From an uncultured Gammaproteobacteria bacterium (lineage in GTDB: Bacteria; Pseudomonadota; Gammaproteobacteria; CAWCPV01): a DNA stretch of 64,000 nucleotides. Each line of letters begins with the position of its first letter. The stretch's first letter is position 1. The stretch is from positions 96,001-160,000 of the forward strand of contig CAWCPV010000005.1 in assembly GCA_963797555.1 (NCBI GenBank), in the 5' to 3' direction. Shown one piece after another: positions 13,602 through 37,801 of this stretch. The position numbers and the translations under genes were made by a program. The notes under the pieces are model-generated. The model saw only the letters and a program-made list of their open reading frames with translations, was not told the origin of the DNA and ran no database searches.

Positions 13602-13621
13602 GTCCCAGACGCATTCTGGCG

Positions 13622-14611: not shown

Positions 14612-14755
14612 GCTGATACGGCTTCCGGGCTTGCGTCGGACAGCGCCCGGACGGGTGTGCGTCCGCGCCGACCGTTCAAAGGCTGCTGTATCATCAGCCA
14701 AGTCCACGAATGCACCGCAGAACCGACACCCAGAGAGCCAGCGGACGAGGTGGCG

Positions 14756-14872: not shown

Positions 14873-15163
14873 CGAATGCAGGGAGTCACGATGAGCGGCA
14901 TACGCCGGCACATTCATGGCCCCGGTGTCCCCAGCCGCTCGGCGAGTCAGGATTGGACTCGCGCGAGGGCCTCGGGTCGGTCCGCAGGTTTAGCGTGCGG
15001 GGAAGGCTTGGGATGATGTCAAGGATGATGTCAAAGCACCAGCCGCGTGCGTTCCGTGATCTCCGAGAGGCACGCGGAGCATAGGCGGTTTAGTTTATAG
15101 TCCTGCATTCGGCACGGTATGCGAAAAAGGATTCTCTCAGGGGCCAGGATCTGCTCATACCAC

Positions 15164-18425: not shown

Positions 18426-19298
18426 ATGGAGAAGGGGTTGCCGAGGTGGTTGGGTGGGCGCGTGCTGAGCGCGGGGGAGCTTGAGAGCATACGGCGGGAG
18501 GCTCGGCTGGCGGAGCCCCGAGTGCGAGCCGAGGTGGCGCGGCGGGTGTGTCGGGTGCTGGGGTGGACCGATGCAGCCGGTAGGCCCAAGCTGATGAGCT
18601 GTCGAGTCGGGCTGCTGCGGCTGCATCGGGCAGGCTGGATCGAGCTGCCGGCGCCGCGCAACGGTAACGGCAATGGGAAGGGGCTGTCGCGCGAGCCGCA
18701 AGATTGGCCCGCTGAGGTACCGGTGGTGGGCGCAGTGCGGGATTTGCAGGGTCTGCACTTGGCGCCGGTTGCTGACCCGGCGGACTCGGCGCTGTGGAAT
18801 GGGCTCATCGACCGGTACCATTATTTGGGCTACCGGCCGCTGCCCGGTGCCCAGCTGCGCTATCTGATTCGCTGGGACGCGGGTGTGGTGGGGGCCATGG
18901 GCTTCGGGGCCGCGGCCTGGAAGGTGGGCGTGCGCGACCGCTGGATTGGCTGGGATGCGCCAAGCCGTGCGCAGCACCTGGGGCAGGTGCTGAACCATGC
19001 GCGGTTTCTCATTCTGCCGTGGGTGCGGGTGGCGAACCTGGCCTCCAAGGTCCTCGGGCGGGCCGCGCGGCAGGTGCCGGGCGAGTTCGAAGAGCGCTAC
19101 GGGGTACGCCCGGTGCTGCTGGAGACCTTTGTCGAGGCCGGCCGGTTCGCGGGCACCTGCTACCGGGCGGCCAACTGGCATCATCTGGGGCAGACCACCG
19201 GGCGGGGCAAGCTCGACCGTGAGGCGCTGCCCATCAAGGATGTCTATGTGTATCCGCTCGATGGCCGCTTTCGCCGGGCGCTCGGGGGAGCCGCATGA
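18426..19298 (+). CDS. DUF4338 (Druantia DruA-like) domain protein inside the IS4 element
   Basis: Motifs LWNGLIDRYHYLGY, GAQLRYL, RDRWIGW, N.ARFLILPWV.V.NLAS, YG.RP.LLETFV and F.GTCYRAANW..LG.T.GRG. Confidence 0.85.
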   Translation: MEKGLPRWLGGRVLSAGELESIRREARLAEPRVRAEVARRVCRVLGWTDAAGRPKLMSCRVGLLRLHRAGWIELPAPRNGNGNGKGLSREPQDWPAEVPVVGAVRDLQGLHLAPVADPADSALWNGLIDRYHYLGYRPLPGAQLRYLIRWDAGVVGAMGFGAAAWKVGVRDRWIGWDAPSRAQHLGQVLNHARFLILPWVRVANLASKVLGRAARQVPGEFEERYGVRPVLLETFVEAGRFAGTCYRAANWHHLGQTTGRGKLDREALPIKDVYVYPLDGRFRRALGGAA

Positions 19299-20629
19299 AT
19301 GCCCTGGCCGAGGAGCTGGCCGCCATCGACTTGGGTGATGCGCGCCTCAACCGCCGGGCGCGACGCACCCTGGAGAAGCTGGGAGCCCATCCCATGCAGA
19401 GCATTCCCACCGCCTGTGGCGGCTGGGCCGAGACCTTGGCGGCTTATCGGCTGTTCGACCATCCCCAGGTCACCGCCCAGGCGGTGCTCGAGCCCCATTA
19501 CGCCTGCACCGAGCAGCGTATGCGCGAATACTCGGTGGTGCTGTGCATCCAAGACACCACGGAAGGGGACTATAGCGGCAAGAACGACATCGTCGGGCTG
19601 GGCCCGCTCAACTACGAGACCCGCCGTGGATTGTACCTGCACCCCACCCTCGCCGTGACCCCCGAGCGGGTGCCCTTGGGGCTATTGGATTTATGGAGCT
19701 GGACCCGCGAGGCGGGCAGTCTGGGCAAGGAGCAGGGCCGCCGGCCCATCGAGGAAAAAGAGAGCCTGCGCTGGCTGGAGGGTTATCGACGCGTCTCGGA
19801 GCTCATCGAGTCCCTGCCCGAGACCCAGTTGGTCTATGTCGCCGACCGCGAGGCCGACATCTACGAGGTGCTCGCGGAACGCGCCGCCACGCAGCCCTGC
19901 GCCGAGTGGCTCATCCGCGCCGAGCGCGCCCGGCTCGCAAGCGCGCCGGTGCTGGCCGAGGCCGAATTCGACCTGCCCGCCACCGCTAGGCGTCCGGCGC
20001 GGCGCATCCACCAGCAACTGCGCGTCGCACGCCTCACTTTCAAGGCCCCGCATCGCTCGGACCGCACCCTGGCGGACATCGAGGTGAGCGCCGTGCTGGC
20101 CCGCGAGGTGGACCCGCCCCAGGGCGAGGAGCCCATCGAGTGGCTGCTCCTCACCAGCCTCCCCGTCGAGACCGCCGAGCAGGCCCTGGAGAAGCTCCAA
20201 TGGTACCTCTGCCGGTGGCAAATCGAGGTGTTCTTCAAGATCCTCAAAAGCGGCTGCCGCATCGAGAAGCTGCAGCTCGAGACCCTCGAACGCCTGGAGC
20301 CCGCGCTCGCCTTCTACCTCATCATCGCCTGGCGGGTGCTCTACCTCACCCTGCTCGGGCGCGACTGCCCGCAGATGCCCTGCAACGTGGTGTTCGCCGA
20401 GGAGGAATGGCGCGCGGTGTATATCGTCACCAAGCGCCAGCCCCCGCCTGAGACACCCCCCTCGCTCGATGCGATGGTGCGTATGGTGGCGAGCTTCGGC
20501 GGCCTCCTCAATCGCAAGGGCGACGGCTTCCCGGGTCCGCAAAGCCTGTGGATCGGGCTGCAGCGAACCCGCGACTTCGTGCTCGCCATGGACGCACAAC
20601 GGGCCTCACAGAGCCCGAGATGTGTATAA
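19295..20629 (+). CDS. IS4/Tn5-type DDE transposase
   Basis: Motifs DLGDARL..R, IQDTT, VADREADIY, Y..RW.IE.FFK.LKSG (YREK) and RKGDG.PG..LW.G. Confidence 0.94.
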   Translation: MNALAEELAAIDLGDARLNRRARRTLEKLGAHPMQSIPTACGGWAETLAAYRLFDHPQVTAQAVLEPHYACTEQRMREYSVVLCIQDTTEGDYSGKNDIVGLGPLNYETRRGLYLHPTLAVTPERVPLGLLDLWSWTREAGSLGKEQGRRPIEEKESLRWLEGYRRVSELIESLPETQLVYVADREADIYEVLAERAATQPCAEWLIRAERARLASAPVLAEAEFDLPATARRPARRIHQQLRVARLTFKAPHRSDRTLADIEVSAVLAREVDPPQGEEPIEWLLLTSLPVETAEQALEKLQWYLCRWQIEVFFKILKSGCRIEKLQLETLERLEPALAFYLIIAWRVLYLTLLGRDCPQMPCNVVFAEEEWRAVYIVTKRQPPPETPPSLDAMVRMVASFGGLLNRKGDGFPGPQSLWIGLQRTRDFVLAMDAQRASQSPRCV

Positions 20630-22217: not shown

Positions 22218-24350
22218 CGGGGCGCCCCTCTCACAGCTATCACACCTACCTCATGGCGGGGCTGGGGCTGGTCGTCGGCGCCGAGGTCAAGGCGGGCGAT
22301 GCGCACTCGGGCAGCCACAGCCTGCCGGGGCTGCTGAAGATACTCGACGCCCTCTCGCCCCCCAGACGACCGAAGCTGGTGCGCGGCGATTGCGGTTTCG
22401 GCTCCGACACCCTCACTGGCCCCGCTGGAGGAGCGGCAACCACCCTACCTGTTCAAGCTCAAGCTCTCGAAGAACGTCAAACGTCACATCGAGCGCATCT
22501 TCTGGCGCAGCGGCTGGTCCGATGCCGGTCAGGGCTGGGAAGGCAAGGACGGCAGCCTGCGTCTCGGTGGCTGGCAGGCGCCGCGGCGCGTCGTGGTGTT
22601 ACGCCGTCCGCTCCAGGGCGAAGTGCTGATTGCGCAGGACCATAACGGCCAGCAACTGCTGGGTTTCATCAAGGCGGACCGAAAGGTGGGTAAGAACATC
22701 ACCGGCTACGAGTATGCCGTGCTGGTGACCAATACCGACTACGAGATTCGAAGGCTCTTTCCGGAATCGTGTGGGTAGCAATGGCTATGGCGTGGGGGCA
22801 TCTGCCTGATCTCCGACACCAGCGGGTGTGTTGAACGGCGAGGCGGGCAGGTGGGCCAGGTTGCCGGCGATGAGGTAGGCGATGGTGATGAGCGAGTGCG
22901 TGGTGCGGTAGCCCCGGGCGCGAGCCTTGGCGGCCTGGATGAGGGAGTTGATGCCCTCGGCGCGGCCGTTGGTGAGGCCCGAGTGGAACGCAGCGAGCAC
23001 GCCGTCCCAATGCTCTTTGAGGGTGGTGGCGAGGCGCTTCATGGGCTGCAGGCGGCTACGCCGTGCCCAGCTATACCAGCGCCCGAGGGCGCTCTCGGCC
23101 TGCTCGAGGGTGCTGGCCGTGGCGTAGATATCGCGCAGCGCCTCCTTGAGGCGCCAGGCGCGGGCGGTCTTGAGGCGGGCGCGGGAGAGCCAGTGGAAGT
23201 CGGTGAGTTGGTCCCAGCCAGGTCCAGCGGGTGCCCCTGAGGGCGGGCTCGGTCTTGATCTCCTGGCGGCGCACCGCGTCGACCGCCTCGTTGGCGAGCT
23301 TGATGACATGGAAGGCATCGAAGCTCACCGTAGCCTGAGGCAGATGCTTGGCCACCCCGGCGCGGTAGGCGGCGGACATGTCGATGCACACCTGCTCGAT
23401 GGCCTGCGGGTCGCCGCCGTGCGCCTTGAGGTCGGCGGCGAAGGCCGCCACGGTGCTCTGGTCGCGGCCCTCGCAGGCGAACAGCAGGCGTTTTCCCGTG
23501 AGGTCATGGAACAGGCTGATGTAGTGCTGTTCACGCCGGGCAGCGGTCTCGTCCAGGCCCACAGCGCTCACCTGCGAGTGGTCCTCCTGAGCACGGGCCC
23601 TGCCTACGTAGCGATCGAGCACCCCCCACAGGCGCTCATCGCCCACACCCAGGTGCCGAGCCACGGTCGCCACCGGCATGGCCTGGCACAGCGTGACCAC
23701 CAGCGCCTCCATCAGCGCCGTGAAGCCACTGTGGGCGCGCGCCCACGGCGCTTCGACCTGGGTCGTCTTGCCGCAGGCCTCGCAGCGCACCCGCGGCAGA
23801 TGCGCGTGCAGGTACGCCCGTGACTTAAAGAAGCTCAGGTGCTGCCAACTGCGCTCCCGGGTGTCGTGCACCGGCTGGCCTTGCACTCCGCAGGCCGGGC
23901 AGGCAAAGCGGCTGCCCTTGGCAAACGCCACATCGAGATCGATGCGCCCAGCCTCGGGGTCGAACCGCACGTCGGTGACCTCCCAAGGCGCTGTCAGGCC
24001 CAGTGCCGTGGTAAACAGATGCGTGGGCTGCACGGTGCTCCCCCCTTGGATGACGGCCTGTGGATTTGTGGACGAGTCCTGCGGAGCGGCCCGCGTCCCA
24101 AGGACCGTGTGGACAACCTCCCGGTTGCCCACACTCGCGGGCCTCTCGCCCACAACCCCACAAGCCCAACCACAAGATGTTGTGATAAGCGACCAGTCAG
24201 GGCAAATGCTACTTCACCACCGCGACCCACACAATTTCCGAAAGAGCCGATTCGAAGCCTCGGCCAACTCTACCGGGACCGGGCCGACGCCGAGAATGCC
24301 TTCGAGGAGCTGAAGAACCAGTGGGGTTGGGGCGGCTTCACCACCCACGC
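22218..24350 (+). pseudogene. IS1380-like transposase fragment interrupted by ISL3 (parts 22218-22752 and 24249-24350)
   Basis: PGRPSH.YH.Y and VRGDCGFG are present. YEYAVLVTNTDYEIR|SLGQLYRDRADAENAFEELKNQWGWGGF reads continuously once the ISL3 is removed. Confidence 0.8.
22753..24248 (-). mobile_element. ISL3-family IS with both ends; transposase (~24033-22785) frameshifted or deleted near 23220
   Basis: TIRs GGCTCTTTCCGGAATCGTGTGGG / CCCACACAATTTCCGAAAGAGCC and an 8-bp TSD GATTCGAA (22745-22752, 24249-24256). Motifs CPAC/CEAC zinc finger, GLDET, CIDMS, FDAFH and TNGRAEG.N. Confidence 0.93.
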
Positions 24351-25418: not shown

Positions 25419-25848
25419 TCAGATGTCCAGGGGCCGTGGCTGCTGAGCGGCGTGCCGATGATCCGCACCGGCGTATATCTTGAGCTTGCGAAGCATAGCT
25501 CGGCCCAACGGGTTCTTCGGAAGCATGCCTCGCACGGCGGATTCGATGATGCGCTCCGGCGCCCGCTCGACGAGCCGTTCGAAACTTTCGCCCTTGATGC
25601 CACCCGGGTAGCCCGAATGCCGGTAGTACATCTTATCCGCACCCTTCTTGCCCGTAACGTAGACCTTCGACGCGTTGACCACGATGATGTGGTCACCCGT
25701 GTCCACGTGCGGCGTGAACTCGGGCTTGTGCTTACCACGCAGACGCCGAGCAATCTCGCTCGCCAAGCGACCCAGCGTCTTGCCGCTCGCGTCGACGACG
25801 AACCAGTCCCGATTGAACGTCGGCCGGTCTTGCGCTGAACGTTGTCAT
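25419..25848 (-). CDS. rplM: 50S ribosomal protein L13 (apparent 1-bp insertion near 25813)
   Basis: [11 protein letters not shown] / [38 protein letters not shown]. The span is 430 bp (3n+1). Confidence 0.96.
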
Positions 25849-25888
25849 GGAGCTACGCCCGAGGCTGCCTGCCCAATGAAGAACGGTT

Positions 25889-25917
25889 ATCGTACGTTCG
25901 GGGACGCCGACTGTCAA
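25889..25917 (-). promoter_or_regulatory. Sigma70 promoter of rplM-rpsI
   Basis: TTGACA-17 bp-TACGAT on the minus strand, ~40 bp upstream of the rplM ATG. Confidence 0.7.
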
Positions 25918-25935
25918 GGTCGCTTGTTGCGAATA

Positions 25936-26372
25936 TGTTAGCCCCAAGTAGTAATGTTCCCTCTGTGCAAGGTAGAAATGTCCCCTTTTGGTGGCAACCG
26001 AGGGGGGTTAGGCGTTGGCAGAGGAGGTCTTGAGTGTGAGCAGGAAGGAGCTGGACCGGGTGTGGGTGATGCAGGCGTTGGTGGCGGGGCGGATGAAGCA
26101 GGGCGAGGCGGCTCGGCAGCTTGCGGTGAGTGTGCGTCAAGTGAAGCGGCTGCTGCGCGGCTACCGGCGCGAGGGCCCGCAGGGGTTGGTGTCGCGGCGC
26201 CGGGGGCGGCGTAGCAACCACCGGTTGCCGGAGCGGCTGCGCTGCCAGGTACTGGAGCGGGTGCGGGCGCATTACCCGGACTTCGGGCCGACGCTCGCCC
26301 ACGAGAAGCTCACCGAGGTCCATGGGCTGAGGGTGTCGGTGGAGACCCTGCGGGGCTGGATGATTGGAGACG
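25936..26372 (+). mobile_element. IS1202/ISNCY-type element: left end plus N-terminal HTH transposase fragment
   Basis: The end starts with TGT and has repeated AAGTAG(T/A)AATGT(T/C)CCC. The protein reads S.KELDR...EAA.QL.VSVRQVKRL...YPDFGPTLA.EKL.E.HG..VS.ETLR.WM. Confidence 0.78.
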
Positions 26373-26612
26373 GGGCGCCTCCCCATCTTCCTGATTGCGA
26401 GAAAAGTTGTGCCAACAAGGGGAGTCCTGCGGGAGGTGCCGGTCCGCCTGCTTGGGCCGCAGGAGGGGGGCGTTGAGATGCGCGGATGAAGGCACATCAC
26501 TTCTTGGACCTGCACGCGCTGCCCCCTCCTCCTCGCCAAACCCCAAACCCCGCCACTCAGCACCTGCACCCATCGACGGACTTTGACGGGACCGTGGCGC
26601 CCGCCTGGCTGG

Positions 26613-27350
26613 CTATGGCTGGTTGCACAGGACGGGTGTCCAATGCTGGCCCCGGGCCACCAGCGTGCTTACATGGTGTCGTCCTAGGTCCAGGTCACAC
26701 ACTGACCACTGCCCCGCAAGCGCGTCGCCCGACATGGGAATTGGGCTGGCACATTCCCACGGTAGGCCCGAGAGATCGAGGCCCGCCAGCCCGAGCAGCC
26801 CCTGCCCCGTCGCCTTCAAGAGGGCCTCACGCCGTGTCCAGTGAACCAGGAATCGGCGCGGGCGCAGGTCGGGAGGAAGACTTCTCAGCATCGCCAGCTC
26901 TCGCGCGGAGAAGAATCTGCGAGCCAAGGCGAGGCAATCGAGCGGGCGCGCCAGATCCTCCACGTCCACGCCGACAGGCCGGTCCAGACCGAAGGCGTAA
27001 ACGGCCAGAGCCTGTGAATGCGACAGATTGAACTCCAGGCGCGTTGCCCGAGTGAGCACTGGCTTGCCGCCTGGTTGATAGCTTATCTCCACCGCGTTGG
27101 AAGACGCGCCCAAGTAGCGCGCCAGCAGAGCCCTAAGCATTCCGCGGGCGATGACGAAACGCCGGCGGTCGTCGTCGAATCGGTAACGGGCTGCCCGCGT
27201 CATCTCTTCTGCGGATAACAGGCCCGCCAGCTCAGCAACCCGGGCTCCCCGGGTGTCGAGCGGGACGCACCACACATGGACATGGTCGCGGCGCAGCGGT
27301 GGGCTGTCCTTCGCACTCACGAGCACCCGTAGCTCCCGCCCCAACGGCAT
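26613..27350 (-). CDS. Sfp-type 4'-phosphopantetheinyl transferase
   Basis: Motifs LS.EE..RA.RY, GKP.L, FNLSHS, VGVDVE and WT.REA.LKA.G.GL. Confidence 0.93.
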   Translation of the reverse strand: MPLGRELRVLVSAKDSPPLRRDHVHVWCVPLDTRGARVAELAGLLSAEEMTRAARYRFDDDRRRFVIARGMLRALLARYLGASSNAVEISYQPGGKPVLTRATRLEFNLSHSQALAVYAFGLDRPVGVDVEDLARPLDCLALARRFFSARELAMLRSLPPDLRPRRFLVHWTRREALLKATGQGLLGLAGLDLSGLPWECASPIPMSGDALAGQWSVCDLDLGRHHVSTLVARGQHWTPVLCNQP

Positions 27351-27539
27351 CTCGCCTTCCGCCGGCCCACCGGTGATAATGTGTCGCCTCCACGGTTCCT
27401 CGTGCAGGCCGTCATGGTCTTGCTCTGGAGAACGCGGCTGCCAGCCGCGGAGTCCCCTAAGACATCGCAGCCGACTTGTGTCCTTTCACGACGTTCCAGA
27501 CCCGGCGCCCCGCACGACGATCATCTAGGCCCCTGACCG

Positions 27540-28403
27540 ATGTTCCTCGTACAGCTTCTGAAGGTCCTCTCCAGGCTGCCGCTGGGCATGCTGTACGCCT
27601 TTGGAACCTTCGCCTACGTCATCGCATACCATGTCATGCGGTTTCGTCGGGACGTGGTGCTGAGGAACCTGCGCAACTGTTTTCCGGACCTCGAACAAGC
27701 GCAACTCGCCCGCCTCTGCAGAACCTCCTACCGACACCTTGGCCAAGTGCTGGCAGAGGCCATCAAGGGCCTCACCATAAGTGAGGGCGAGCTGCGCCGG
27801 CGGGTGAGGTTCGTCAATCTGGAAGTCCTGGAAGAATTCGCCCAGCGCGGGGAGTCCGTCATCCTCCTCGCAAGCCACCAATGCAATTGGGAATGGCTGC
27901 TGCTGGCCGCTTGCCTGGAGCTGCCCTTCCGGGTCGATGCGGTGTACAAGCCGCTGCACAATGCGCCTGTCGACAGTCTTATGCTGGAGGCGCGATCGCG
28001 GTTCGGGGGCCGACCCATCCCCGTGCAGCGCTTTCTCACCGAAGTGATGCGGCGTAGGGGTGGCGCCCGAGGATTCGCGCTGGTCGCCGACCAGACGCCC
28101 CTGCGGCACGAGGAGAAGTACTGGACCAGATTCCTGAATCAGGATACGGCCTTCTACGTGGGACCACAGAAAATCGCGAAGATCACCAACTCCCCCGTAG
28201 TCTTCATTCGCATGATGCGCACCCGTAGAGGCCATTATGACGTCCGGCTGAGAACCTTGGCTTGCCCACCCTATTCTGCGGATGGGTATGAGATCATCGA
28301 GGCATATGTACGCGAAGCCGAGAGACAGGTACTGGACCATCCGCCCGACTGGCTGTGGATCTACCGCAAGTGGAAATACAAGAAGCCGCTGTACGCCTCA
28401 TGA
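27540..28403 (+). CDS. LpxL/HtrB-like lipid A or lysophospholipid acyltransferase
   Basis: Catalytic H-x4-E motif (SHQCNWE), RR.VV.RNL..CFP, VADQ.P, FLNQ.T.F..G and P.DWLW..RKWK. Confidence 0.9.
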   Translation: MFLVQLLKVLSRLPLGMLYAFGTFAYVIAYHVMRFRRDVVLRNLRNCFPDLEQAQLARLCRTSYRHLGQVLAEAIKGLTISEGELRRRVRFVNLEVLEEFAQRGESVILLASHQCNWEWLLLAACLELPFRVDAVYKPLHNAPVDSLMLEARSRFGGRPIPVQRFLTEVMRRRGGARGFALVADQTPLRHEEKYWTRFLNQDTAFYVGPQKIAKITNSPVVFIRMMRTRRGHYDVRLRTLACPPYSADGYEIIEAYVREAERQVLDHPPDWLWIYRKWKYKKPLYAS

Positions 28404-30356
28404 GACCAAGCCCCCCTGCAGATGGGCAGCCAGATCCGCGATGGTGGGATGCTCGAAGAGGTCTTGGATGTCCACCCTGCCGGGGAAGACCTTTTCCATC
28501 CGCTCGTAAATCTGGGCAAGAATTAAAGAGCTGGTTCCAATCTCGAATAGGTTGTCGTGCAGACCCACCTTCTTGCCCATCATGACGCTGTCGCAGATCT
28601 CCAGCAGAGTCCGCTCCACGGCCGTCGGCCCACCGGCCATCGCTTCCTCGTGTGTGGCCAGCAGCCTCTCCGTGTGCCTCAGGATCTCCGCGTGTTCCCC
28701 GAGCAGATACTCCTCGCCCAGCAGGTAGCGCTGGATCTTGCCGCTGGTGGTTTTCGGTATCCTGGTCACGGGAATGACGTGTGCCACCTCGACGCCCACC
28801 TGCTCGCTGATGTGCGTCTTGATCGCCCTGGCCATCGGAATAAAATCCCCGACAGGGCCTCGGTGCAGCACGAAGACCAATACCTCGTCCGTCGCGTCAC
28901 CTTCCCGTCTGACACCGCAGGCGGCCACCTTGCCGAGATCGACGTAGCCGCCCGAAACCGCGACAGCCTCCAGGTCATGAGGGAAGAAGTTCTGCCCGTT
29001 GACGAAGAGGATGTCCTTGGTCCGACCGGTGATTACGAGCCGGCCGTCCAGCATGAAACCCAGATCGCCGGTGTCCAGCCAACCGTCTGGACCGAGCACC
29101 GCGCGGGTCGCCTCCTCGTCGCCGTAGTAGCCGGCGGTGACGTTCCCGCCGCGGATCTGGATGTGACCGACGACCTTGTCGCCCAGGACAGCCCCCCGCT
29201 CATCGACGAGCCTCAGCTCGCAGTCTCGGATCGCACGGCCCACGCTCACGAAGATCGCCCGGTTCCCGGAGGCTGCGTCCACGAAACGCACGTGCGCCCC
29301 CACCCCCAGCACACGTCTGTCGACGGCGACCGACTGCACCCGCGCGCCAGGGTCAGGGAAGGTCACGGCCAGGCTCGCCTCAGCCAGCCCGTATACCGGG
29401 TACATGGCGGTCCGCTTCAGCCCGAACGGATCGAGCTTCGCGCAGAACTCGTTACACAGATCGAGAGCCACTGGCTCTGCCCCGTTGAAGATGAGACGCA
29501 CAGGCGCGAGATCAACGCCCGCGGCCTTTTCCGAAGAGAAGGCCCGCAGCAGGTGCTTGTAGCCAAAATTTGGGGAGCACGTGATGGTGGCGCGCTTCTC
29601 GCTTGCCTTCTGCAACCACAGCAAGGGGCGCCTCACGAACAGCTCGGTTGCCATGAGGAACTGGTTCACTCCCAGAACCAACGGCGTGAGGTGGAACCCA
29701 ATGAGCCCCATATCGTGGGTCAGTGGCATCCAGCTCAGGAAGGAGTCCGCCGCTGTCATCGCGCTGCTCGCGATGATGGCGTCGATGTTGACCATCAGGT
29801 TGCGATGCGTCAGCACCACGCCCTTTGGCTCGCTGGTGGAGCCGGACGAGAACTGAATGAACGCCGTGTCCGACGGGGCGGACCGGTATGGGTCGCCCGA
29901 GCGGGAGATGTCGTCGATCTCGTCCGCCAGGATGGTGCGCGGCCGCATCAGATCGAAGGCCGCAGCGAGTCCCTGGGTGCGGGCGAATGATTGCAGTCGT
30001 CCCAGGCTCTTGCGATCGGTATACAGGAACGGGTTGCGGAGCTTTCCGCCGACCCTCAATACTTTCAGACGGTGGTCGTCGGTGATCCCGAGCGCGAGCG
30101 GTACGGGCACGATTCCGCCGAGTAGACAAGCCCAAAAACCATCGACGAACTGCTCGTCGCTGCCGACCCAGAGAATCAGTTGGTCGCCCGGCCCCAAGCC
30201 TCGCCCTTGCAGGTGCCGCAGAATCCCAAGGGCTCGTTGGTAAAGGATCGGCAGCGAGACGGAGCGCTCATTACTCTCCCCGCCGATGTAGGTGATTGCC
30301 ACGTCGTCAGCGAGGCGCACATCAAGGGCCTCGGTCAGGGTGTTAAAGCTCCGCAT
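28398..30356 (-). CDS. Fatty acyl-AMP ligase (adenylation domain) fused to an acyl carrier domain
   Basis: Motifs QFSSGST..PKG, SWMPLTHDMGLIG, YGLAEA.LAV plus a FAAL-type insertion, TGDLG and PKT.SGK.QR. The C-terminal DNLFEIGTSSL...IQDLFEHPTI.DLA carries the Ppant serine. Confidence 0.92.
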   Translation of the reverse strand: MRSFNTLTEALDVRLADDVAITYIGGESNERSVSLPILYQRALGILRHLQGRGLGPGDQLILWVGSDEQFVDGFWACLLGGIVPVPLALGITDDHRLKVLRVGGKLRNPFLYTDRKSLGRLQSFARTQGLAAAFDLMRPRTILADEIDDISRSGDPYRSAPSDTAFIQFSSGSTSEPKGVVLTHRNLMVNIDAIIASSAMTAADSFLSWMPLTHDMGLIGFHLTPLVLGVNQFLMATELFVRRPLLWLQKASEKRATITCSPNFGYKHLLRAFSSEKAAGVDLAPVRLIFNGAEPVALDLCNEFCAKLDPFGLKRTAMYPVYGLAEASLAVTFPDPGARVQSVAVDRRVLGVGAHVRFVDAASGNRAIFVSVGRAIRDCELRLVDERGAVLGDKVVGHIQIRGGNVTAGYYGDEEATRAVLGPDGWLDTGDLGFMLDGRLVITGRTKDILFVNGQNFFPHDLEAVAVSGGYVDLGKVAACGVRREGDATDEVLVFVLHRGPVGDFIPMARAIKTHISEQVGVEVAHVIPVTRIPKTTSGKIQRYLLGEEYLLGEHAEILRHTERLLATHEEAMAGGPTAVERTLLEICDSVMMGKKVGLHDNLFEIGTSSLILAQIYERMEKVFPGRVDIQDLFEHPTIADLAAHLQGGLVS

Positions 30357-31677
30357 CGGAAGGGTCGGTTCGTCTGTGGGGAATCATATGGAGGTCATGC
30401 TTGGTGCGCAGGTTGATGTGCGCCTCCAGCGCCAAGGGTTCTCGAAGGACGTACTCGAAACGGACGTGTCGCGCCATGGCCGCAAGGTGCATCTGCATCT
30501 CCACGAGCGCGAGAAGCTCGCCGACACAGCCTCTCGGACCCGCGGAGAAGGGAACGTAGGCAAAGTGGGGCCTGGCCTTCACCCGATCCGGCGCGAAGCG
30601 GTCCGGGTCGAAAAGTTCCGGAGTGCGCCAGTACGCGGGGTGCCGGTGGATGATATAGGGGGAGATGAAGACCTGCGTCCCCGGCGGCGCGTGGTAGCCG
30701 CCGACCTCGTCCTCGCCCAGTGCCCTACGTGTGAGCAGCCAGCCCGGCGGGTAGAGCCGCAGCGCCTCTTGCGCCACCTGCAGCGTGTACGGGAGCCTCG
30801 CAAGACGCTCGATATCTGGAAGCTCAGCCCCCAGCACGGCATCTACCTCTTCGTGCAGCCTCGCCTCTACCTCAGGGTGCTGGGACAGAAGGAGCCAGGT
30901 CGAGTTCAGGGCACTGGCCGTCGTCTCGTGACCCGCCACGATGAGGGTCATCGTCTCGTCCAACAACTGCCTGTCCGACATCGGCTCGCCCGTCGTTTCG
31001 TCGCGCGCACTCATCAGCATGCCGAGAAAGTCTGCGCGTTCCCTTCCTTCGCTACGCCGACGCTGGACACACTCACGCACGATGTTCGCGAGTGAGCGGA
31101 ACTTGAAGGCGAACGCCAGGTTCCTCTCGGGCTCGTCGGTCAATAGGGCGAACGGGTTGCGCCCCTGCTCCTGGACGATGCGCTCGAGATCTTCGCCGAA
31201 GGTGGCACGCAGCGTAATGTCCAGCGTAAGCTCGCTGGTATCCTGCGTGACGTTCACCGCTTGGCCCGCACCAACATGCCGCAGCCACTTGTGCAGCAGC
31301 AGTCGGTTCGAGCTGACGATGAGGTCAGATAGCCTGCCAATCAGCTTGTGGTGGAAGGCGGGCTGGATCATTCGCCGCTGCCGGCGCCAGAAGTCTCCTT
31401 CGCTCACCATGATGCCGTGACCCAGCAGGATCTGCACCCGGTCTATCCCGACCCCTTTCTCGAAGTTCTTCCGATTCGTCACCAGCACGTGCTTGACCTC
31501 GTCGGGGTGGCTCAGGACGTAAATGTCACCGCCGCCAGCGGGTGCAAACAGGCGATAGACGTCACCATACTGCCGGAACAACGCGTACAGCCGCTCCAAC
31601 GACCCGTCCGGGAAGCTGATGTCGAATGCTTCCTGAGGCCCCGGCGGCGAGCGCTTGTCTCGGCAGATTTCCGTCAT
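30343..31677 (-). CDS. Cytochrome P450
   Basis: I-helix AGHETT, EALR (ExxR), FDPDRF and heme ligand FSAGPRGCVG. Overlaps the FAAL start by 14 bp. Confidence 0.96.
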   Translation of the reverse strand: MTEICRDKRSPPGPQEAFDISFPDGSLERLYALFRQYGDVYRLFAPAGGGDIYVLSHPDEVKHVLVTNRKNFEKGVGIDRVQILLGHGIMVSEGDFWRRQRRMIQPAFHHKLIGRLSDLIVSSNRLLLHKWLRHVGAGQAVNVTQDTSELTLDITLRATFGEDLERIVQEQGRNPFALLTDEPERNLAFAFKFRSLANIVRECVQRRRSEGRERADFLGMLMSARDETTGEPMSDRQLLDETMTLIVAGHETTASALNSTWLLLSQHPEVEARLHEEVDAVLGAELPDIERLARLPYTLQVAQEALRLYPPGWLLTRRALGEDEVGGYHAPPGTQVFISPYIIHRHPAYWRTPELFDPDRFAPDRVKARPHFAYVPFSAGPRGCVGELLALVEMQMHLAAMARHVRFEYVLREPLALEAHINLRTKHDLHMIPHRRTDPSDAEL

Positions 31678-31767: not shown

Positions 31768-32260
31768 TCAAGTCAGGTCGTTCCACAGATGCCGTAGGCG
31801 GTCTCGGGCCTGCAGCAGTTGTTCCGGCGGCTGCGGCCACTGCTCCAGGACCACCGAGCCACAAAACCCTCGTCTCAACAGACGCTGGATGAGTGCCCGC
31901 AGCCCGCGGTCATCGTGAGCGGCGGGACCGGTGAAGAGCGTCAGGTGACTGTCCCCATCTCCCCAGTTCTCGTGGGCGTACCAGTGGATGATGGGAACGT
32001 GCTTCCCGAGGAGGTCCACGAAGCGCACATAGTCGTTCCGGGTGTCCGAGAACAGGTTGGCGTGTCCCGTATCAAGACACAGCCCGACCCGACCGGCGGC
32101 CTGGGGGATGGCGTCCAACAGCTTGAAGACGGCATTCACGTAGTCCGGGGAGGTCTCGGGGGTGTTCTCCAGGCTGAGGCGAAGGTGCGCGGTGCGAGCC
32201 GCCTCTAGCAGAGGTACGAGTGACTCCCCGAAGGGGCGGGACACGAACCTTGCTGCGAGA
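31768..32260 (-). pseudogene. Sugar phosphate isomerase/epimerase (TIM barrel) C-terminal part, truncated by an IS relic
   Basis: Motifs LSLENT, LCLDTGHA, H.HENWG..DSHL and VLEQW. The 5' end abuts the IS1380 fragment. Confidence 0.7.
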
Positions 32261-32279
32261 GCTTGGACGACTGCTGCGA

Positions 32280-32735
32280 AACATCCCTTACGAGTATGGC
32301 TACGAGTTCAAGGTGATTATCACCAACAAGCCCCAGCACGCCGCAGAGGTGGTGGCCTTCCACAACGGCCGCGGTGCTCAGGATGGGCTGTTCAAGTCGA
32401 CAACCAGCTCGACTATGTGCCCACCCGCACCTGGGTGGGCAGCCAAGTCTATCTGCTCTCGACACTGCTCGCCCACAACCTCAGCCGGGAGCTTCAGATG
32501 ATAGCGCGCCCACTACCCCGCCAGGTCTCGCAGAAACGGCCCGCATTGTGGGACTTTGCCCGCCTCAATACGCTGCGCTGCCGGCTCATCCAGCGCGCCG
32601 GTCGCCTGATCCGTCCCCAAGGTCGATTGACCCTGTCGTTGAGTGCCAATTCAGCCGTCCAGCACGAGCTGTGGCATTATCTGCAGGCTCTGCAGAAAGC
32701 GGCATGATCGGAAAGTTTTTGCAACGATAGGGTTT
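32280..32735 (+). mobile_element. IS1380-like transposase C-terminal fragment
   Basis: Motifs YEFKVIITNK...FHNGRG.Q, AHNL.RELQ and TLR.RLIQRAGRL.RPQG.L.L. Confidence 0.7.
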
Positions 32736-34325: not shown

Positions 34326-34868
34326 GATCTTTGCACAAGGGCCGTGGAAGAACTGGACGGCACAACCGTCCGGTTCTTCTTGTCACGTAAAGCGTGATAT
34401 TGCCTGTGCACATCTACTTGAGCGACGGCCTGCAACACGTCCAGGGCTTGCCGCTGACGCCATCGCCGCGTCTCAACTCTCCTGTCGGGGATCACTGTCA
34501 GAGGCGAGACGGAGCAGGCTCCTCCCTCCCATGAGGTTCGGCCCTCGCGACGGCTCACGGAAGTGCTACTGCACCCAGGCACTATGGTCGGGGGCTAGCG
34601 TGCCCGCCAACTCCACGCTCGCAGCGAACGTCCCGTCAAGAGGGCGCTGCGGGATTGAAGGCTCGTTTACATGGCTTAGCGAAATACTTACGGCAAATTA
34701 ACCGCAAGCTTATGACTTCCCTGCGGTGCCAGCGAGATGATTTATGCGAAGCCCAACGGTCAGATGCCGACGAGGTCCACGGCGACTGACGGTGTCTAAT
34801 CGGACAGCAACGCCTGGGCGAGCCCCGCCTCGCCGCCCGTTCCGCCACTTCGAATGGAGGATTCACCG

Positions 34869-36395
34869 ATGAAGACCTCGCACTTAGCGACCACATTAGT
34901 CACCTTCACCACCTGCTTCCTGACGCTGCCAAACCCAGCGGTCGCCCAGAGCAAAGGCCTGGGCGACGTGGCCTCCAGGCTTGCAGCGGAGATCACCCCA
35001 CCACCCCCGTGCCACCCGAACCCCAGCGCGGTGCCCGACATCGTGAGCGTCCTCACCCGAGGAGACATTCGCAACCTGCCAGACGCGCTGACCGACCGCC
35101 TCGCCATTCTCGCAGGCCGGCCTCACAGCCAGCTACCCACACAGGCATACGCCGAAGCCCATTCTGACAAAGCACCCTTCAAACCCAAGCCGAGTGAGCT
35201 CTTCCAGTATTACTTGCTCGATACGAACGGCTTCGAACCCAATCCGTTCACGAGCCTGATACCGGAAGTCAACGACACCGCCATGCTCACCGCCACGGGC
35301 CCCGACTGTGGCCTACCCACCCTCGGCACAGTACGCGTGGTTCTGGAGCCCAAACCTGGCCTGCCGACCGACCCCAACGACGTCCGCGCGTTCATCGACG
35401 TCTTCACCGACATCTCTGGGCTCTTCGTCATCAACAACGAGAGCGGCTGGTACGAAGGGTGGATGATCCATGACCTGAGGGTTGCCCCAGTGAACGACAC
35501 GACGCGCCCCGACGGCCATGCGCAATTCGGCGCTATCCTGCAGGCTGACGCCGACGCGCTGAAGGCGATGGGCAGCGGCAACAACGTGCCACGCCACATC
35601 TTCACGACGGATGGCAAACCGGTGCACTTCCCCAGCCCGACAGACCGCTTTCCGGACCTCCAGACCAACGTCGTCCCGATCCAGCTTAGCATGGGCGCCT
35701 GGAACACGCTGCAGCAGAGTGACGGCCACGCTTACTGGGAGTTCAACTACACCACCGACTGGGTCCACCCCCTGTATGAACTGCCCTTCACCGGCGGTAT
35801 TCCCGGCACCTTCGAGAAGGGTCAGGTCGGCGCACTCTCGTCTCTCGTTCCCGGCTCGGGCCCCTCGGGCGTCAAGAACGATCCGCTCGAGTACGGCGAC
35901 AATCCCAACACTGTCGGCGTGCTACAGGCGTCCGGCCCGCGTGACCCGGATAAGTTCGATGCGGACGATGATTCGCAGCGCGAGTTCCGTCAGCGATTCA
36001 TCCCCAGCGGCCTGGCCAATGAGATCTTTCTGGACGTTTACGAAAGGCCGGCCTCCTTCCAGCCAGGTGTCACCGATTTCAGTCAACGTCTGTTCGACGC
36101 CTACGCCGCGGAGGTGGCAAGGGTTGACACCGGCGAGGGGTTTGACAACGGCAATGGCGTCATATCCGCCGCTGAAGGCGACGTGGACACTGCTTCGGAC
36201 GGATTCCCAGACAACAAACGGCTCTTCATTCCGGCCACGCAGTTCAATCGCTTCGCAGTCACGCGGGAGATTAACGACGGGTTGCTGGCACCCCGGTTTG
36301 CCCCCAGCCAGAAGGCTTGGGTACTGTCGGGAACGCTGGTACCCGTGAGTCCGTCCGTGCCTGCCTCGGAGGGCGAGGACGGCGACGATCGTTAA
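34869..36395 (+). CDS. Large exported hypothetical protein, acidic and Pro-rich
   Basis: Signal peptide ending AVA, GGAGG RBS upstream and a long clean ORF. No domain recognised. Confidence 0.8.
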   Translation: MKTSHLATTLVTFTTCFLTLPNPAVAQSKGLGDVASRLAAEITPPPPCHPNPSAVPDIVSVLTRGDIRNLPDALTDRLAILAGRPHSQLPTQAYAEAHSDKAPFKPKPSELFQYYLLDTNGFEPNPFTSLIPEVNDTAMLTATGPDCGLPTLGTVRVVLEPKPGLPTDPNDVRAFIDVFTDISGLFVINNESGWYEGWMIHDLRVAPVNDTTRPDGHAQFGAILQADADALKAMGSGNNVPRHIFTTDGKPVHFPSPTDRFPDLQTNVVPIQLSMGAWNTLQQSDGHAYWEFNYTTDWVHPLYELPFTGGIPGTFEKGQVGALSSLVPGSGPSGVKNDPLEYGDNPNTVGVLQASGPRDPDKFDADDDSQREFRQRFIPSGLANEIFLDVYERPASFQPGVTDFSQRLFDAYAAEVARVDTGEGFDNGNGVISAAEGDVDTASDGFPDNKRLFIPATQFNRFAVTREINDGLLAPRFAPSQKAWVLSGTLVPVSPSVPASEGEDGDDR

Positions 36396-36519: not shown

Positions 36520-36716
36520 CCTCTGACCGGAAGACCGCACTTCGGGGGATGAAGGACCTTGCGGCCTCTTACGGCTTCACCGTCGAAGGGGTTCTGGAGA
36601 CGCCAAGCTCAAGAGGAGACGCCGCGGCACCGGCCGAGGTGAAATACTGTAACCCGGACAACCCCGATCAGACGTGGGCCGGTCGAAGCAGGAAGCCGCG
36701 TTGCTCGTGGAGTTAC
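36520..36716 (+). pseudogene. H-NS family relic abutting IS630
   Basis: A..YGF.V..VL...VKY.NPDNP.QTW.GR.RKP resembles the H-NS DNA-binding motif. Confidence 0.7.
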
Positions 36717-37801
36717 TAGTGTAGTGCTTCATTCTGTTTAGAACTTAAACGTGCGTTGGCGCGGATGACCTTCTGCAGGATGTCCTTAGCCTTGGCGGTC
36801 CAGATGAAGGGTTTGGGATTGGCGTTGTGGGCATCGACATAGCGGTTGATGGCAGGGATCAACTCGGGGACGCTTCGAAACACGCCACGGCGCAACCGAT
36901 CCACAGTCAGGTCGCGGAAGAATCGCTCGACCATGTTCAACCAGGATGCTGAGGTGGGCGTGAAATGGATGTGGAAACGCGGGTGTTTTCCCAGCCATTT
37001 CTGAACGTTGGGATGTTTGTGGGTGGCGTAGTTGTCGCAGACCAAGTGCAGTTCCTTGTCCTTGGGCGTCTCGCGGTCGATTTGGCGCAGGAAGGTGAGC
37101 CACTCCGTGTGGCGATGGTGCGGCTCGCAGCGGGCAATCACGGAACCCTCCAAGGTGTTCAGGGCAGCAAACAGTGTCGTGGTGCCATGGCGCTTGTAGT
37201 CATGGGTCATGGTCGCAGCCCGCCCCTTCTTCAGCGGCAGGCCAGGTTGGGTACGATCCAGCGCCTGAACCTGACTCTTCTCGTCGCAGCACAACACCAA
37301 AGCATGCTCCGGGGGGGACAGATACAGCCCGACGATGTCCTCCAACTTCTCGGTGAATTTCGGGTCGCGCGATACCTTGAAGGATTCGACACGATGCGGC
37401 TTCAGCCCATGGGCATGCCACACGCGCAGCACCGTGGTGTCGCTCACTCCCATTTCCTTAGCCAGGGTCCGCGTACTCCACTGTGTCGCTGCTAAGGGCT
37501 GGGTCTGAGTCGTGCGTCGCACGATCTCGGCGGCATCCACCTTGGGCTGACGACCTCCGCGCGGCAGGTCACACTCGATGGCCGCCAGCCCGCCTTGCGC
37601 ATAGCGCTCCCGCCAACGCCCAACCTGCACACGCCCAATCTTGAGTTCCGCCGCGATGGCCTTGTTCTCCATGCCCACCGCCGCCAACAGCACAATGCGC
37701 GCTCGGCGGGCCAGCCTCACACTCGTGGTGTTCGAACGCGACACACGCCTCAGGCTCCGCTGTTCTTCCGCGCTCAGTCGGACCATCGGGGCTACTCGCA
37801 T
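36716..37801 (-). CDS. IS630 transposase
   Basis: HTH N-terminus and DDE motifs CCDEKSQ.QAL, HDYKRHGT, DNYATH and SWLN.VERFF. Confidence 0.95.
   Translation of the reverse strand: MRVAPMVRLSAEEQRSLRRVSRSNTTSVRLARRARIVLLAAVGMENKAIAAELKIGRVQVGRWRERYAQGGLAAIECDLPRGGRQPKVDAAEIVRRTTQTQPLAATQWSTRTLAKEMGVSDTTVLRVWHAHGLKPHRVESFKVSRDPKFTEKLEDIVGLYLSPPEHALVLCCDEKSQVQALDRTQPGLPLKKGRAATMTHDYKRHGTTTLFAALNTLEGSVIARCEPHHRHTEWLTFLRQIDRETPKDKELHLVCDNYATHKHPNVQKWLGKHPRFHIHFTPTSASWLNMVERFFRDLTVDRLRRGVFRSVPELIPAINRYVDAHNANPKPFIWTAKAKDILQKVIRANARLSSKQNEALH

Follow-up and report, generated by a model that had tools for sequence, protein, structure and literature searches.

A candidate private acyl-donor module for an LpxL-family acyltransferase in an uncultured gammaproteobacterium

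Four contiguous genes of an uncultured gammaproteobacterium code for a P450, a FAAL-ACP didomain protein, an Sfp-type PPTase and an LpxL-family acyltransferase (AT). Do they work together and, if so, on which lipid? The initial annotation of the window (the whole stretch of 64,000 nucleotides analysed) proposed an undescribed load-oxidise-transfer route that places an oxidised acyl chain on lipid A or another membrane lipid. Literature searches found no description of such a module in print, as that proposal had supposed, and the module is compact and widely conserved but apparently uncharacterised. If the reading developed below is true, bacteria would have a new means of decorating their outer membrane.

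Gene content and setting

The four genes at 26613-31677 were intact, with catalytic motifs present in all four translations (Table 1). The P450 stop lay over the FAAL-ACP start in a 14-nt overlap (30343-30356), the 3' ends of the AT and FAAL-ACP genes shared 6 nt (28398-28403), and the PPTase gene was divergent from AT, as had been described. IS relics were found on both flanks, a HTH-only fragment on the left and a DDE_Tnp_1_4 fragment on the right, with further transposases on each side. The module thus lies between IS relics, upstream of rplM-rpsI, and the host probably acquired it horizontally. No lpx or waa gene adjoined the cassette in the window.

Table 1. Features of the cassette and its flanks (window positions)
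Feature	Position	Strand	Size or evidence
Left-flank Tn5-type transposase	19295-20629	+	
Left-flank ISL3-type transposase	23071-24153	-	
Left-flank IS relic	26015-26476	+	transposase N-terminal HTH fragment, no catalytic domain; Pfam HTH_28, HTH_32, HTH_29 only
PPTase gene	26613-27350	-	245 aa
PPTase-AT divergent intergenic region	27351-27539		189 bp; presumed shared promoter region, from coordinates
LpxL-family acyltransferase (AT) gene	27540-28403	+	287 aa
FAAL-ACP didomain gene	28398-30356	-	652 aa
C-terminal carrier (ACP) domain	28419-28571	-	Pfam PP-binding 5.5e-10, residues 596-646
FAAL-type adenylation domain	28692-30308	-	Pfam AMP-binding 1.1e-45
P450 gene	30343-31677	-	444 aa
Right-flank xylose-isomerase-like TIM-barrel gene, N-terminally truncated	31768-32244	-	Pfam profile positions 105-247 of 249
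Right-flank DDE_Tnp_1_4 C-terminal fragment	32162-32707	+	Pfam profile positions 342-433 of 435
Right-flank IS630-type transposase	36716-37801	-	

A Pfam search of the host assembly detected no ketosynthase (PF00109), condensation (PF00668) or thioesterase (PF00975) domain on contig C5, so the reported lack of such genes nearby holds for the contig. The PF00109 matches were on contigs C14, C17 and C3, those of PF00975 on C7 and C17, while PF00668 had zero matches across the whole assembly.

The PPTase matched Pfam ACPS (4.7e-16) and AASDHPPT_N (1.3e-11) and reached 180 bits with NCBIfam HetI, under the cut-off of 370. With the motifs FNLSHS, GVDVE and WTRREALLK, it is by sequence an Sfp/HetI-type 4'-phosphopantetheinyl transferase; a tblastn search of the host assembly returned only the gene itself.

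PRK09192, a fatty acyl-AMP ligase model with a cut-off of 600 bits, was the best NCBIfam match of the FAAL at 364.6 bits, and the motifs SSGSTSEPKGV, YGLAE, GRTKD and PKTTSGKIQR were present. The GTSSL motif of the ACP domain (residues 607-611) holds the presumed phosphopantetheine site, Ser610, unchanged in 36 of 36 aligned orthologues. The nearest solved structures to the adenylation domain were McyG A-PCP 4r0m, 6ulw, E. coli FAAL 3pbk, Legionella FAAL 3kxw and FadD32. Since McyG, the nearest of them, loads a non-fatty acid, the substrate may not be a plain fatty acid.

The P450 (Pfam p450, 2.1e-79) carried AGHETT, EALR and FSAGPRGCVG, the last with the heme Cys384; this cysteine, AGHETT and ExxR were kept in all 37 P450 sequences compared. 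A redox partner gene was absent from the four-gene cassette. Known P450s that act on acyl-ACP include BioI (CYP107H1), which the initial annotation had cited as an example. The window's P450 is not BioI-like, as its nearest solved relatives were CYP97 (2.1e-63), 7wzl, CYP170A1, CYP4B1, CYP46A1, CYP3A4 and CYP102, none of CYP107 type. Oxidation of a free acid prior to loading is therefore no less likely than oxidation of the ACP-bound chain.

The AT matched Pfam Lip_A_acyltrans (PF03279) at 5.9e-35, with H113-x4-E118 unchanged in 18 of 18 aligned sequences. It reached about 92 bits with the best NCBIfam LpxL models and scored far under every curated LpxL/LpxM cut-off. Its N-terminus has a hydrophobic stretch, read from sequence, which was modelled as helices (AlphaFold model, pLDDT 89.1). 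A fold search with this model gave LpxM 5knk as the best match (TM 0.75) and PatA as the second (TM 0.68). A branch with SH-aLRT 100 split the AT clade from the canonical LpxL proteins found in relatives of the class, to which the AT is only 22-29% identical; by these comparisons, the clade is distinct from housekeeping LpxL.

Conservation of the neighbourhood

The survey covered the 80 best AT loci, 67 with at least 2.2 kb downstream and 55 with room on both sides. FAAL-ACP was convergent with and adjoining AT in 38 of 67 loci and present anywhere in the locus in 46 of 67. The window's complete four-gene layout was repeated in 13 of the 55 loci, while 11 had AT+FAAL+PPTase, two AT+FAAL+P450 and three AT+FAAL only; a PPTase orthologue adjoined AT or FAAL in 37 of the best 80. 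The layout recurs in many genomes, across orders and two phyla, and is therefore not a chance adjacency, in line with the initial annotation. No KS/C/TE cluster recurred among the neighbours, so the homologs do not look like fragments of larger NRPS/PKS clusters. RND pumps adjoined the cassette in 14 of the best 80 loci, in four unrelated subfamilies (24-46% identity) and thus not as a conserved part of the module.

We observed that the AT and its proposed donor also occur apart. For five genomes without FAAL at the AT locus, a full-length orthologue was found elsewhere in three and a frameshifted copy in one. In the class sample (401 genomes), 14 of 400 had an AT-type gene and 24 of 401 a FAAL-ACP match; eight had both, compared to about 0.8 expected under simple independence, which relatives do not satisfy. 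An AT-type gene stood without a FAAL-ACP orthologue in six of these 14 genomes, four of them 99-100% complete, and the same was seen in the complete Cyclobacteriaceae chromosome G041. The AT is therefore not strictly dependent on a FAAL-ACP donor.

The P450 was directly beside FAAL-ACP in 15 of the 19 class-sample loci fetched, so the adjoining pair does recur. On the other hand, it was absent from 16 of 32 loci that have an adjoining FAAL-ACP and room for a P450, and 12 Cycloclasticus-type loci were without it. The P450 is thus an accessory rather than a core member of the module.

Besides AT, the P450-FAAL-ACP pair has an alternative partner. A DUF374 gene adjoined the pair in 12 of 13 fetched class-sample FAAL-ACP loci without AT (the identity of six members was checked by Pfam). 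DUF374 corresponds to LpxJ, a family of late acyltransferases in which every characterised member has lipid A as its acceptor (excerpts of PMC6148475).

Proposed route and rival readings

We consider the chances about even that the cassette is self-contained and supplies a late acyltransferase of lipid A type with its own 'private acyl donor'. All steps proposed here are drawn from knowledge of the families, as are their order, the oxidation site, donor, acceptor and chain length. The PPTase would turn the ACP domain of FAAL-ACP into the holo form at Ser610. The FAAL would then adenylate a free carboxylic acid (a long-chain fatty acid is most likely) and load its own ACP, bypassing CoA and the housekeeping FAS II ACP. 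The P450, presumably translationally coupled to FAAL-ACP, may hydroxylate the chain, either as the free acid before activation or as the ACP-bound acyl group, a step that would be optional in the wider family. Transfer and release would fall to the AT, esterifying a membrane acceptor with the acyl group from the ACP; the most probable acceptor, on indirect support, would be lipid A or a precursor of Kdo-lipid IVA type, which would gain an acyloxyacyl group as its secondary chain. The AT may take the role held elsewhere by LpxM or LpxJ. Of the route first proposed, conserved linkage and independence from PKS/NRPS clusters stood, while a BioI-like P450 as an integral step did not.

The host assembly has LpxC and WaaA, and a profile search found no DUF374 gene in it. 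Only two other PF03279 matches were detected, a 36-bit gene on contig C17, with an ACP and a KS-family hit as neighbours, and a 20.7-bit match under the family cut-off. By sequence, the AT is the only credible late acyltransferase found in this assembly, which is 84.6% complete by marker count; the missing part could include a canonical LpxL. LpxC was present in five of five further cassette genomes checked. A canonical LpxL was also present in four of five cassette genomes, and the module is therefore supplementary and not the main route.

The same donor logic could serve another envelope lipid, a possible though clearly less favoured reading: a lyso-aminolipid, a glycolipid, a hopanoid-type or other polyol lipid, or a phosphoinositide-like lipid as with PatA. 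PatA, the second-best fold match, belongs to PF03279 and acylates phosphatidylinositol mannosides, no curated LpxL model comes close to the AT, no lpx gene adjoins it, and the LPLAT superfamily also yields aminolipid O-acyltransferases (PMC11631085, in excerpt). The neighbouring RND pumps would suit such a lipid too, but, as noted above, the module does not include them as conserved members, and no OlsB/GlsB-type N-acyltransferase or glycosyltransferase recurred beside AT in the surveyed loci. Moreover, the alternative partner DUF374/LpxJ points to lipid A, and three of five Cytophagales genomes have no PF03279 gene outside the AT clade, which lies amid housekeeping genes there.

That last setting also argues against a minimal secondary-metabolite cassette, in which the AT would release a (hydroxy)acyl chain onto a soluble acceptor (amino acid, sugar or signal molecule), as do the modelled N-terminal helices of AT and an assembly free of condensation domains. 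We regard this reading as quite improbable, even with McyG as the nearest solved adenylation domain and although both FAAL-ACP didomains and PPTases of the Sfp type are characteristic of natural-product pathways (PMC11837247, in excerpt). Salvage or repair is unlikely as well: FAAL-ACP would take up free (oxidised or exogenous?) fatty acids, the AT would re-acylate lyso-lipids in the manner of Aas, and the P450 would serve fatty-acid or alkane metabolism. The P450-less layout does occur in MAGs titled Cycloclasticus, a hydrocarbon-degrading genus, and the FAAL matches models of the acyl-[ACP]--phospholipid O-acyltransferase Aas (6.3e-30). Proteins in which a FAAL is fused to a lysophospholipid acyltransferase are also known (excerpts of PMC8460268 and PMC12820801). 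However, the partner enzymes here are LpxL-type or DUF374-type, not PlsC-type (PF01553), and a specific product is suggested by the cassette's own PPTase and the tight coupling of P450 and FAAL. Least probable by far is that the cassette is what remains of a larger PKS/NRPS cluster or an IS-made adjacency; the IS relics would fit it, but the intact genes, the recurring layout and a contig free of KS, condensation and thioesterase domains contradict it.

Comparison with known systems

The private-donor reading has partial precedents. The AcpXL/LpxXL system of Rhizobiales uses a dedicated ACP to feed an LpxL-family late acyltransferase, which puts a hydroxylated very-long secondary chain onto lipid A. 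The likeness lies in an ACP separate from the FAS II AcpP; however, the AcpXL chain is built by dedicated Fab-type enzymes and its hydroxyl comes from biosynthesis, whereas the window has no KS or Fab gene, and the FAAL would capture a free acid for the P450 to oxidise. Oxidation of a lipid A acyl chain is also the work of LpxO, the secondary-chain 2-hydroxylase, which is an Fe/2-oxoglutarate dioxygenase and not a P450.

The AT model matches LpxM best (structure 5kn7/5knk), and the P450-FAAL-ACP pair has DUF374 (LpxJ-family) genes as alternative partners, but we know of no LpxM or LpxJ with a private FAAL-ACP donor. The characterised ones draw on housekeeping acyl-ACP (excerpts of PMC6148475). 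E. coli Aas and the FAAL-LPLAT fusions share the path from an ANL-family ligase through an ACP to an LPLAT-superfamily acyltransferase that acylates a membrane lipid (PMC8460268 and PMC12820801, in excerpt). Aas differs in its PlsC-type domain, housekeeping ACP and role in lysophospholipid repair, compared to an LpxL-type AT with its own ACP, PPTase and P450.

The V. cholerae AlmEFG system has the same three-part logic of ligase, carrier and transferase with clustered genes: the ligase AlmE loads the phosphopantetheinylated carrier AlmF, and the transferase AlmG modifies lipid A (excerpts of PMC4278540). AlmE takes glycine, whereas the window's FAAL-type ligase would supply a fatty acyl chain; its carrier is fused to the ligase, and the cassette further includes a PPTase of its own and a P450.

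Composition of the four-gene cassette

All four open reading frames (ORFs) of the cassette were found where the initial annotation had placed them, and the coordinates agreed with the overlaps that it had described: a 14-nt overlap of the P450 and FAAL-ACP genes and a 6-nt convergent overlap of the FAAL-ACP gene with the LpxL-family acyltransferase (AT) gene. They also give a 189-bp spacer between the divergent PPTase and AT genes. The cassette packs its four genes into about 5 kb. The catalytic motifs were intact in all four proteins and were kept in the orthologs. The best NCBIfam matches were a HetI-type PPTase, LpxL/HtrB models, PRK09192 and terpenoid-type P450s; since every score was below the curated cut-off, no named enzyme has an equivalog among the four genes.

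Positions of the cassette genes and of other features noted in the window
Feature	Position	Strand	Match
PPTase	26613-27350	-	Pfam ACPS + AASDHPPT_N
AT	27540-28403	+	Pfam Lip_A_acyltrans 5.9e-35
FAAL-ACP	28398-30356	-	Pfam AMP-binding 1.1e-45 + PP-binding
P450	30343-31677	-	Pfam p450 2.1e-79
rplM (L13)	25419-26007	-	L13 domain
rplM, frame with complete L13 domain	25419-25844	-	L13 domain
rplM, expected N-terminus in other frame	25732-26007	-	
ArnT-like glycosyltransferase	57441-59351	+	PRK13279
Long ORF	8898-10445		
Long ORF	11856-13118		
Long ORF	13271-14917		
Long ORF	34854-36395		
Long ORF	40364-41650		
Long ORF	52210-53610		

In the ligase part of FAAL-ACP, all the core motifs of the ANL type (SSGSTSEPKGV, YGLAE, GRTKD and PKTTSGKIQR) were found, and the top NCBIfam match was the FAAL model PRK09192, with 364.6 bits compared to a cut-off of 600. 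As regards the insertion by which FAALs block the use of CoA, the AMP-binding match covered 395 residues over 375 profile positions. In the ranking of solved structures, the McyG A-PCP didomain and 6ulw stood above the FAALs 3pbk (E. coli) and 3kxw (Legionella), with FadD32 also near. A fatty acid is the most likely substrate for adenylation, with another carboxylic acid possible. The predicted phosphopantetheine attachment residue of the fused PP-binding domain, Ser610, was invariant in 36 of 36 sequences. The PPTase had two lobes with the motifs FNLSHS, GVDVE and WTRREALLK, scored 180 bits against the HetI equivalog (cut-off of 370 not reached), and was the only Sfp-type gene detected in the host by tblastn.

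The P450 carried the FxxGxRxCxG heme-thiolate loop, the I-helix AGxxT motif and ExxR. Cys384, AGHETT and ExxR were kept in 37 of 37 sequences, with F377, G380, R382, C384, G386, E251, T252, E304 and R307 as invariant columns. The P450 is not like BioI, which the initial annotation had cited as a P450 acting on ACP-tethered chains: no BioI or CYP107 name appeared among the 60 solved-structure matches listed, and the nearest structures were those of CYP97 carotenoid hydroxylases, 7wzl, CYP170A1, CYP4B1, CYP46A1, CYP3A4 (CYP3A) and CYP102. The long hydrophobic chains that these CYP types oxidize are mostly free substrates. No redox partner gene is encoded in the cassette. A complex predicted for the P450 and the ACP domain from our own alignments (A2 and A3) scored 0.01 against a mark of 0.32, which speaks neither for nor against binding.

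Linkage of the genes across genomes

A profile of AT and 17 homologs (alignment A1) detected at least 568 related loci in species-representative genomes. The best 80 were kept, and neighbors were counted by tblastn with the four proteins of the window. By record titles, these 80 loci came from Betaproteobacteria/Burkholderiales, Gammaproteobacteria (Cycloclasticus, Thiomargarita, Steroidobacteraceae and Pseudomonadales) and Bacteroidota (Cytophagales).

Among these best 80 of at least 568 loci, 67 had at least 2.2 kb downstream of AT; a FAAL-ACP gene was convergent and adjacent in 38 of them and present anywhere in the locus in 46. With at least 3.6 kb downstream, the adjacent gene was seen in 32 of 59 loci, and a P450 was present in 16 of these 32 and absent in the other 16. 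Still within the best 80, the four-gene order of the window was repeated in 13 of the 55 loci whose flanks were long enough on either side. The same 55 included 11 loci with AT, FAAL and PPTase and no P450, two with AT, FAAL and P450, and three with AT and FAAL only, while an adjacent FAAL was missing in 26 (eight of which had a FAAL elsewhere in the locus). The conservation of the neighborhood across genomes, which the initial annotation had put forward as a check, therefore holds in the adjacent FAAL-ACP genes as well as in the full layout. The four-gene module that it had described is real and self-contained; its view of the P450 as a core part did not stand, given the even split among loci with an adjacent FAAL-ACP. 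The P450 is accessory.

The order AT> <FAAL <PPTase, never with a P450, was found in 12 loci; the record titles name Cycloclasticus or Piscirickettsiaceae for 11 of them and Methylococcaceae for the other. In all 12 Cycloclasticus-type loci (L065, L067-L070, L072, L074, L075, L077, L080, L081 and L086) a 780-aa protein was encoded divergently from the PPTase (at about 13.6-16.0 kb in L065). This protein combined a weak PlsC-type acyltransferase match with a lysophospholipase-like alpha/beta-hydrolase, and its position may reflect a functional link or mere genus synteny.

For five genomes with no FAAL at the AT locus, a full-length ortholog (49-52% identity) was located elsewhere in three, in one of them together with its P450 at ~14 kb from AT. 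The fourth genome had frameshifted copies of both the FAAL-ACP and the P450 genes, and the fifth, a complete Cyclobacteriaceae chromosome, had no FAAL-ACP ortholog. At locus L123 (G042:C21:56793-60632), the P450 and FAAL-ACP orthologs were broken across several frames, as pseudogenes or through long-read indel errors.

The remaining neighbors of AT were lineage-specific housekeeping genes. RND pumps (AcrB-type with membrane-fusion partners) were immediate neighbors of the cassette in 14 of the 80 loci (L037, L039, L042, L049, L053, L078, L087, L091, L102, L104, L107, L108, L111 and L114), and in Steroidobacteraceae-type loci AT came right after the pump gene in the same orientation. We considered these pumps as a possible exporter of the product and rejected them as a conserved part of the system, as they belonged to four unrelated subfamilies (24-46% identity) with no close ortholog in the host.

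A second view of the linkage came from 400-401 genomes drawn evenly from the class of the host (thresholds of E <= 1e-35 for AT and E <= 1e-100 for FAAL-ACP). The AT clade was detected in 14 of 400 genomes and FAAL-ACP matches in 24 of 401 (including the unpublished genome G309, counted only), with both present in eight. Two of the 24 FAAL-ACP matches were 35-40% identical and lay inside long ORFs (1430 and 2523 aa). Thirteen FAAL-ACP loci were fetched from class genomes that had no AT-clade gene. A P450 was directly upstream of FAAL-ACP in 12 of the 13, one of them cut by a contig end, and a divergent gene belonging to a single cluster stood beside the P450-FAAL-ACP pair in 12 of the 13; the lone locus without it ended 30 nt past a P450 fragment. 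The cluster was assigned to DUF374 by Pfam in five of five members scanned, as was the corresponding gene of L102, and a PPTase gene was sometimes wedged between the DUF374 gene and the pair. DUF374 corresponds to the LpxJ family, which replaces LpxM non-orthologously in the 3'-secondary acylation of lipid A (PMC6148475). Taken together, the linkage and the class-sample counts therefore define an invariant core of FAAL-ACP with a PPTase somewhere, a P450 as usual companion, and a partner from either family known as lipid A late acyltransferases (LpxL-type or DUF374).

The acyltransferase clade and the host

The Pfam match of AT ran over the full length of the family profile (residues 4-279 against positions 20-294 of 295), and its H113-x4-E118 dyad (HX4D/E) was invariant in 18 of 18 sequences and aligned with the LpxM motif. 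The AlphaFold model (pLDDT 89.1) had LpxM of A. baumannii as the best fold match (5knk, TM 0.75, E 4e-13), followed by PatA (TM 0.68). The scores were below the curated LpxL/LpxP/LpxM cut-offs (92.1 bits compared to 248 for PRK08419 and 91.7 compared to 297.8 for TIGR02207). In a maximum likelihood tree of 99 sequences (quick search), the ACYLTRANSFERASE tree, all AT-type sequences formed one clade (SH-aLRT 100; stem length 3.19 substitutions per site), set apart from the canonical LpxL homologs of class relatives (22-29% identical). On this sequence evidence, AT belongs to a distinct clade of PF03279. The AT of the window grouped among Burkholderiales-type sequences (nearest relative 62% identical), a placement without strong support.

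Canonical LpxL (194-233 bits) was present besides AT in four of five genomes carrying a related cassette, so AT is an extra paralog in those four. In three of five Cytophagales genomes, the AT clade provided the sole PF03279 gene, set among housekeeping genes such as lepA, sua5 and a WbqC-like gene, as is expected of a late acyltransferase that acts on lipid A in a housekeeping role. Ten records of a plasmid collection matched AT at 26-44% identity, all from Bacteroidota; the best one, a Chondrinema litorale plasmid, had AT alone and no FAAL. Two tandem copies of the AT-clade gene stood beside one FAAL-ACP in a Burkholderiales MAG (L048, at 491 and 1420) and likewise in class genome G163 (L145, 9048-10785), which suggests two acylation sites or two acceptors served by one donor.

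The host assembly (5.35 Mb in 20 contigs, GC about 0.645, marker completeness 84.6%) encodes LpxC and WaaA, so the host makes Kdo-lipid A. LpxC was also present in five of five further cassette genomes, including three titled Streptomyces/Streptomycetaceae and one Chitinophaga pinensis. Burkholderiales-like cassettes occurred in MAGs titled Streptomyces, Streptomycetaceae, Chitinophaga pinensis and Bordetella parapertussis (L047, L057, L061, L042 and L078). LpxC was present in the genomes of L047, L057, L061 and L042, the four tested. The titles look mis-assigned.

Besides the cassette AT (121 bits), the host had just two PF03279 matches, of 36 bits and of 20.7 bits (sub-threshold). The former (L118, G000:C17:24549-31614) adjoins a PRK09184-type phosphopantetheine-binding ACP and lies about 3.5 kb from a KS-family match (C17:24549-24971), an arrangement that we take to resemble an aryl-polyene-type lipid cluster. 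The latter adjoins a Wzt-like ABC ATPase. With these matches weak and no DUF374/LpxJ gene in the 84.6% complete assembly, the cassette AT is the only credible late acyltransferase found in it.

The nearest named relatives of the host BioF were from Sedimenticola, Thiohalophilus, Chromatiales and Thiocapsa (62-69% identity), and the nearest genomes compared share only the class with the host, which is probably a deep-branching gammaproteobacterium. IS relics lie on both sides of the cassette, as had been noted initially. The Burkholderiales-type placement of AT, these IS flanks and the Chromatiales-like housekeeping gene point to horizontal acquisition of the cassette. None of the RNA datasets was listed as carrying the window, and DNA datasets carried at most 0.27 of its sampled words.

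A putative route of lipid A modification

The analysis shows that the genes are intact and their linkage conserved, gives a family and fold for every part, and reveals a pairing with two families of late acyltransferases. These results partly support a role of the cassette in carrier-dependent late modification of lipid A, with the chemistry deduced from the protein families. The PPTase would prime the ACP domain of FAAL-ACP, the FAAL would adenylate a free acid and load it onto its own ACP, and the P450 would hydroxylate the chain before or after loading. AT would then transfer the chain from the private ACP onto an acceptor in the membrane; this is most probably lipid A, which would receive it as a secondary chain.

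The cassette could also be read as a relic of a PKS/NRPS cluster. We rejected this reading, as the assembly search gave no KS (PF00109) or thioesterase domain match on contig C5, which carries the window, and no condensation domain in the whole host assembly, C5 included; the initial annotation had likewise noted no such genes nearby. As for an aminolipid product linked to OlsB/GlsB, no neighbor of that type turned up among the 10 proteins scanned that flank AT or in the recurrent neighbor clusters.

The known system closest to this route is AlmEFG of V. cholerae, whose ligase and carrier protein work with the transferase AlmG to put glycine on lipid A (PMC4278540). The cassette likewise has an adjacent adenylating ligase, a carrier and an LpxL-related transferase, all conserved, but its ligase is of the FAAL type and not of the amino-acid type (AlmE/DltA-like). 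The AcpXL/LpxXL system uses a private ACP and a hydroxylated chain built by Fab enzymes. The private ACP and the hydroxylated chain (predicted for the cassette) are shared, whereas the dedicated Fab/KS genes are not: PF00109 genes were absent from contig C5 and did not recur among neighbors in the related loci. Aas and FAAL-LPLAT fusions use PlsC-type domains (PMC8460268 and PMC12820801).

Among the papers listed, our literature search gave no report that joins FAAL with LpxL, LpxJ or DUF374, or that connects the acylation of lipid A to a P450, though the supplementary tables of PMC12820801 and PMC8460268 may list the architecture. The available portions of a FAAL review (PMC11837247) and of an aminolipid review (PMC11631085) do not mention the module, which is apparently undescribed. 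The following proposal goes further, and we consider it rather doubtful: the cassette would represent the first late acylation of lipid A from a free fatty acid via a private FAAL-ACP (not FAS II acyl-ACP) and the first P450-dependent LPS modification, with a transferase of the LpxL or LpxJ/DUF374 clade installing an omega- or in-chain-hydroxylated secondary chain. To our knowledge, the late acyltransferases described so far all draw on acyl-ACP from FAS II, except for PatA, which takes acyl-CoA.

The acyl chains of lipid A determine the permeability of the outer membrane, resistance to antimicrobial peptides and recognition by innate immunity. If the proposal were true, the module may take the place of LpxM/LpxJ in many Proteobacteria and Bacteroidota of the environment, giving an outer membrane with a lipid A composition that tracks available fatty acids and with a further derivatizable hydroxyl. 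It would open a new input route (free fatty acid, with P450 oxidation optional) into the synthesis of envelope lipids, add a new class of LPS modification, and provide a function for the widespread orphan FAAL-ACP/P450 pair, otherwise read by genome-mining tools as a stray natural-product fragment. Since the cassette is compact, it is directly testable by heterologous expression.

IS elements (Tn5-, ISL3-, IS630- and IS3-type) abound in the window, as do genes with no assigned family. Six long ORFs (420-548 aa) had no NCBIfam match at E <= 1e-10; the one of them scanned with Pfam (34854-36395) likewise had no match. The frame of rplM with the complete L13 domain has no in-frame start codon. 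This apparent 1-nt frameshift in an essential gene is most likely an assembly indel error and would fit the low completeness score of the assembly; the next gene is the single-copy rpsI, which really starts near 25408. The ArnT-like gene, 26 kb from the cassette, scored 138 bits against a cut-off of 567 for the lipid IV(A) L-Ara4N transferase model PRK13279 and is a possible further gene of lipid A or envelope modification.
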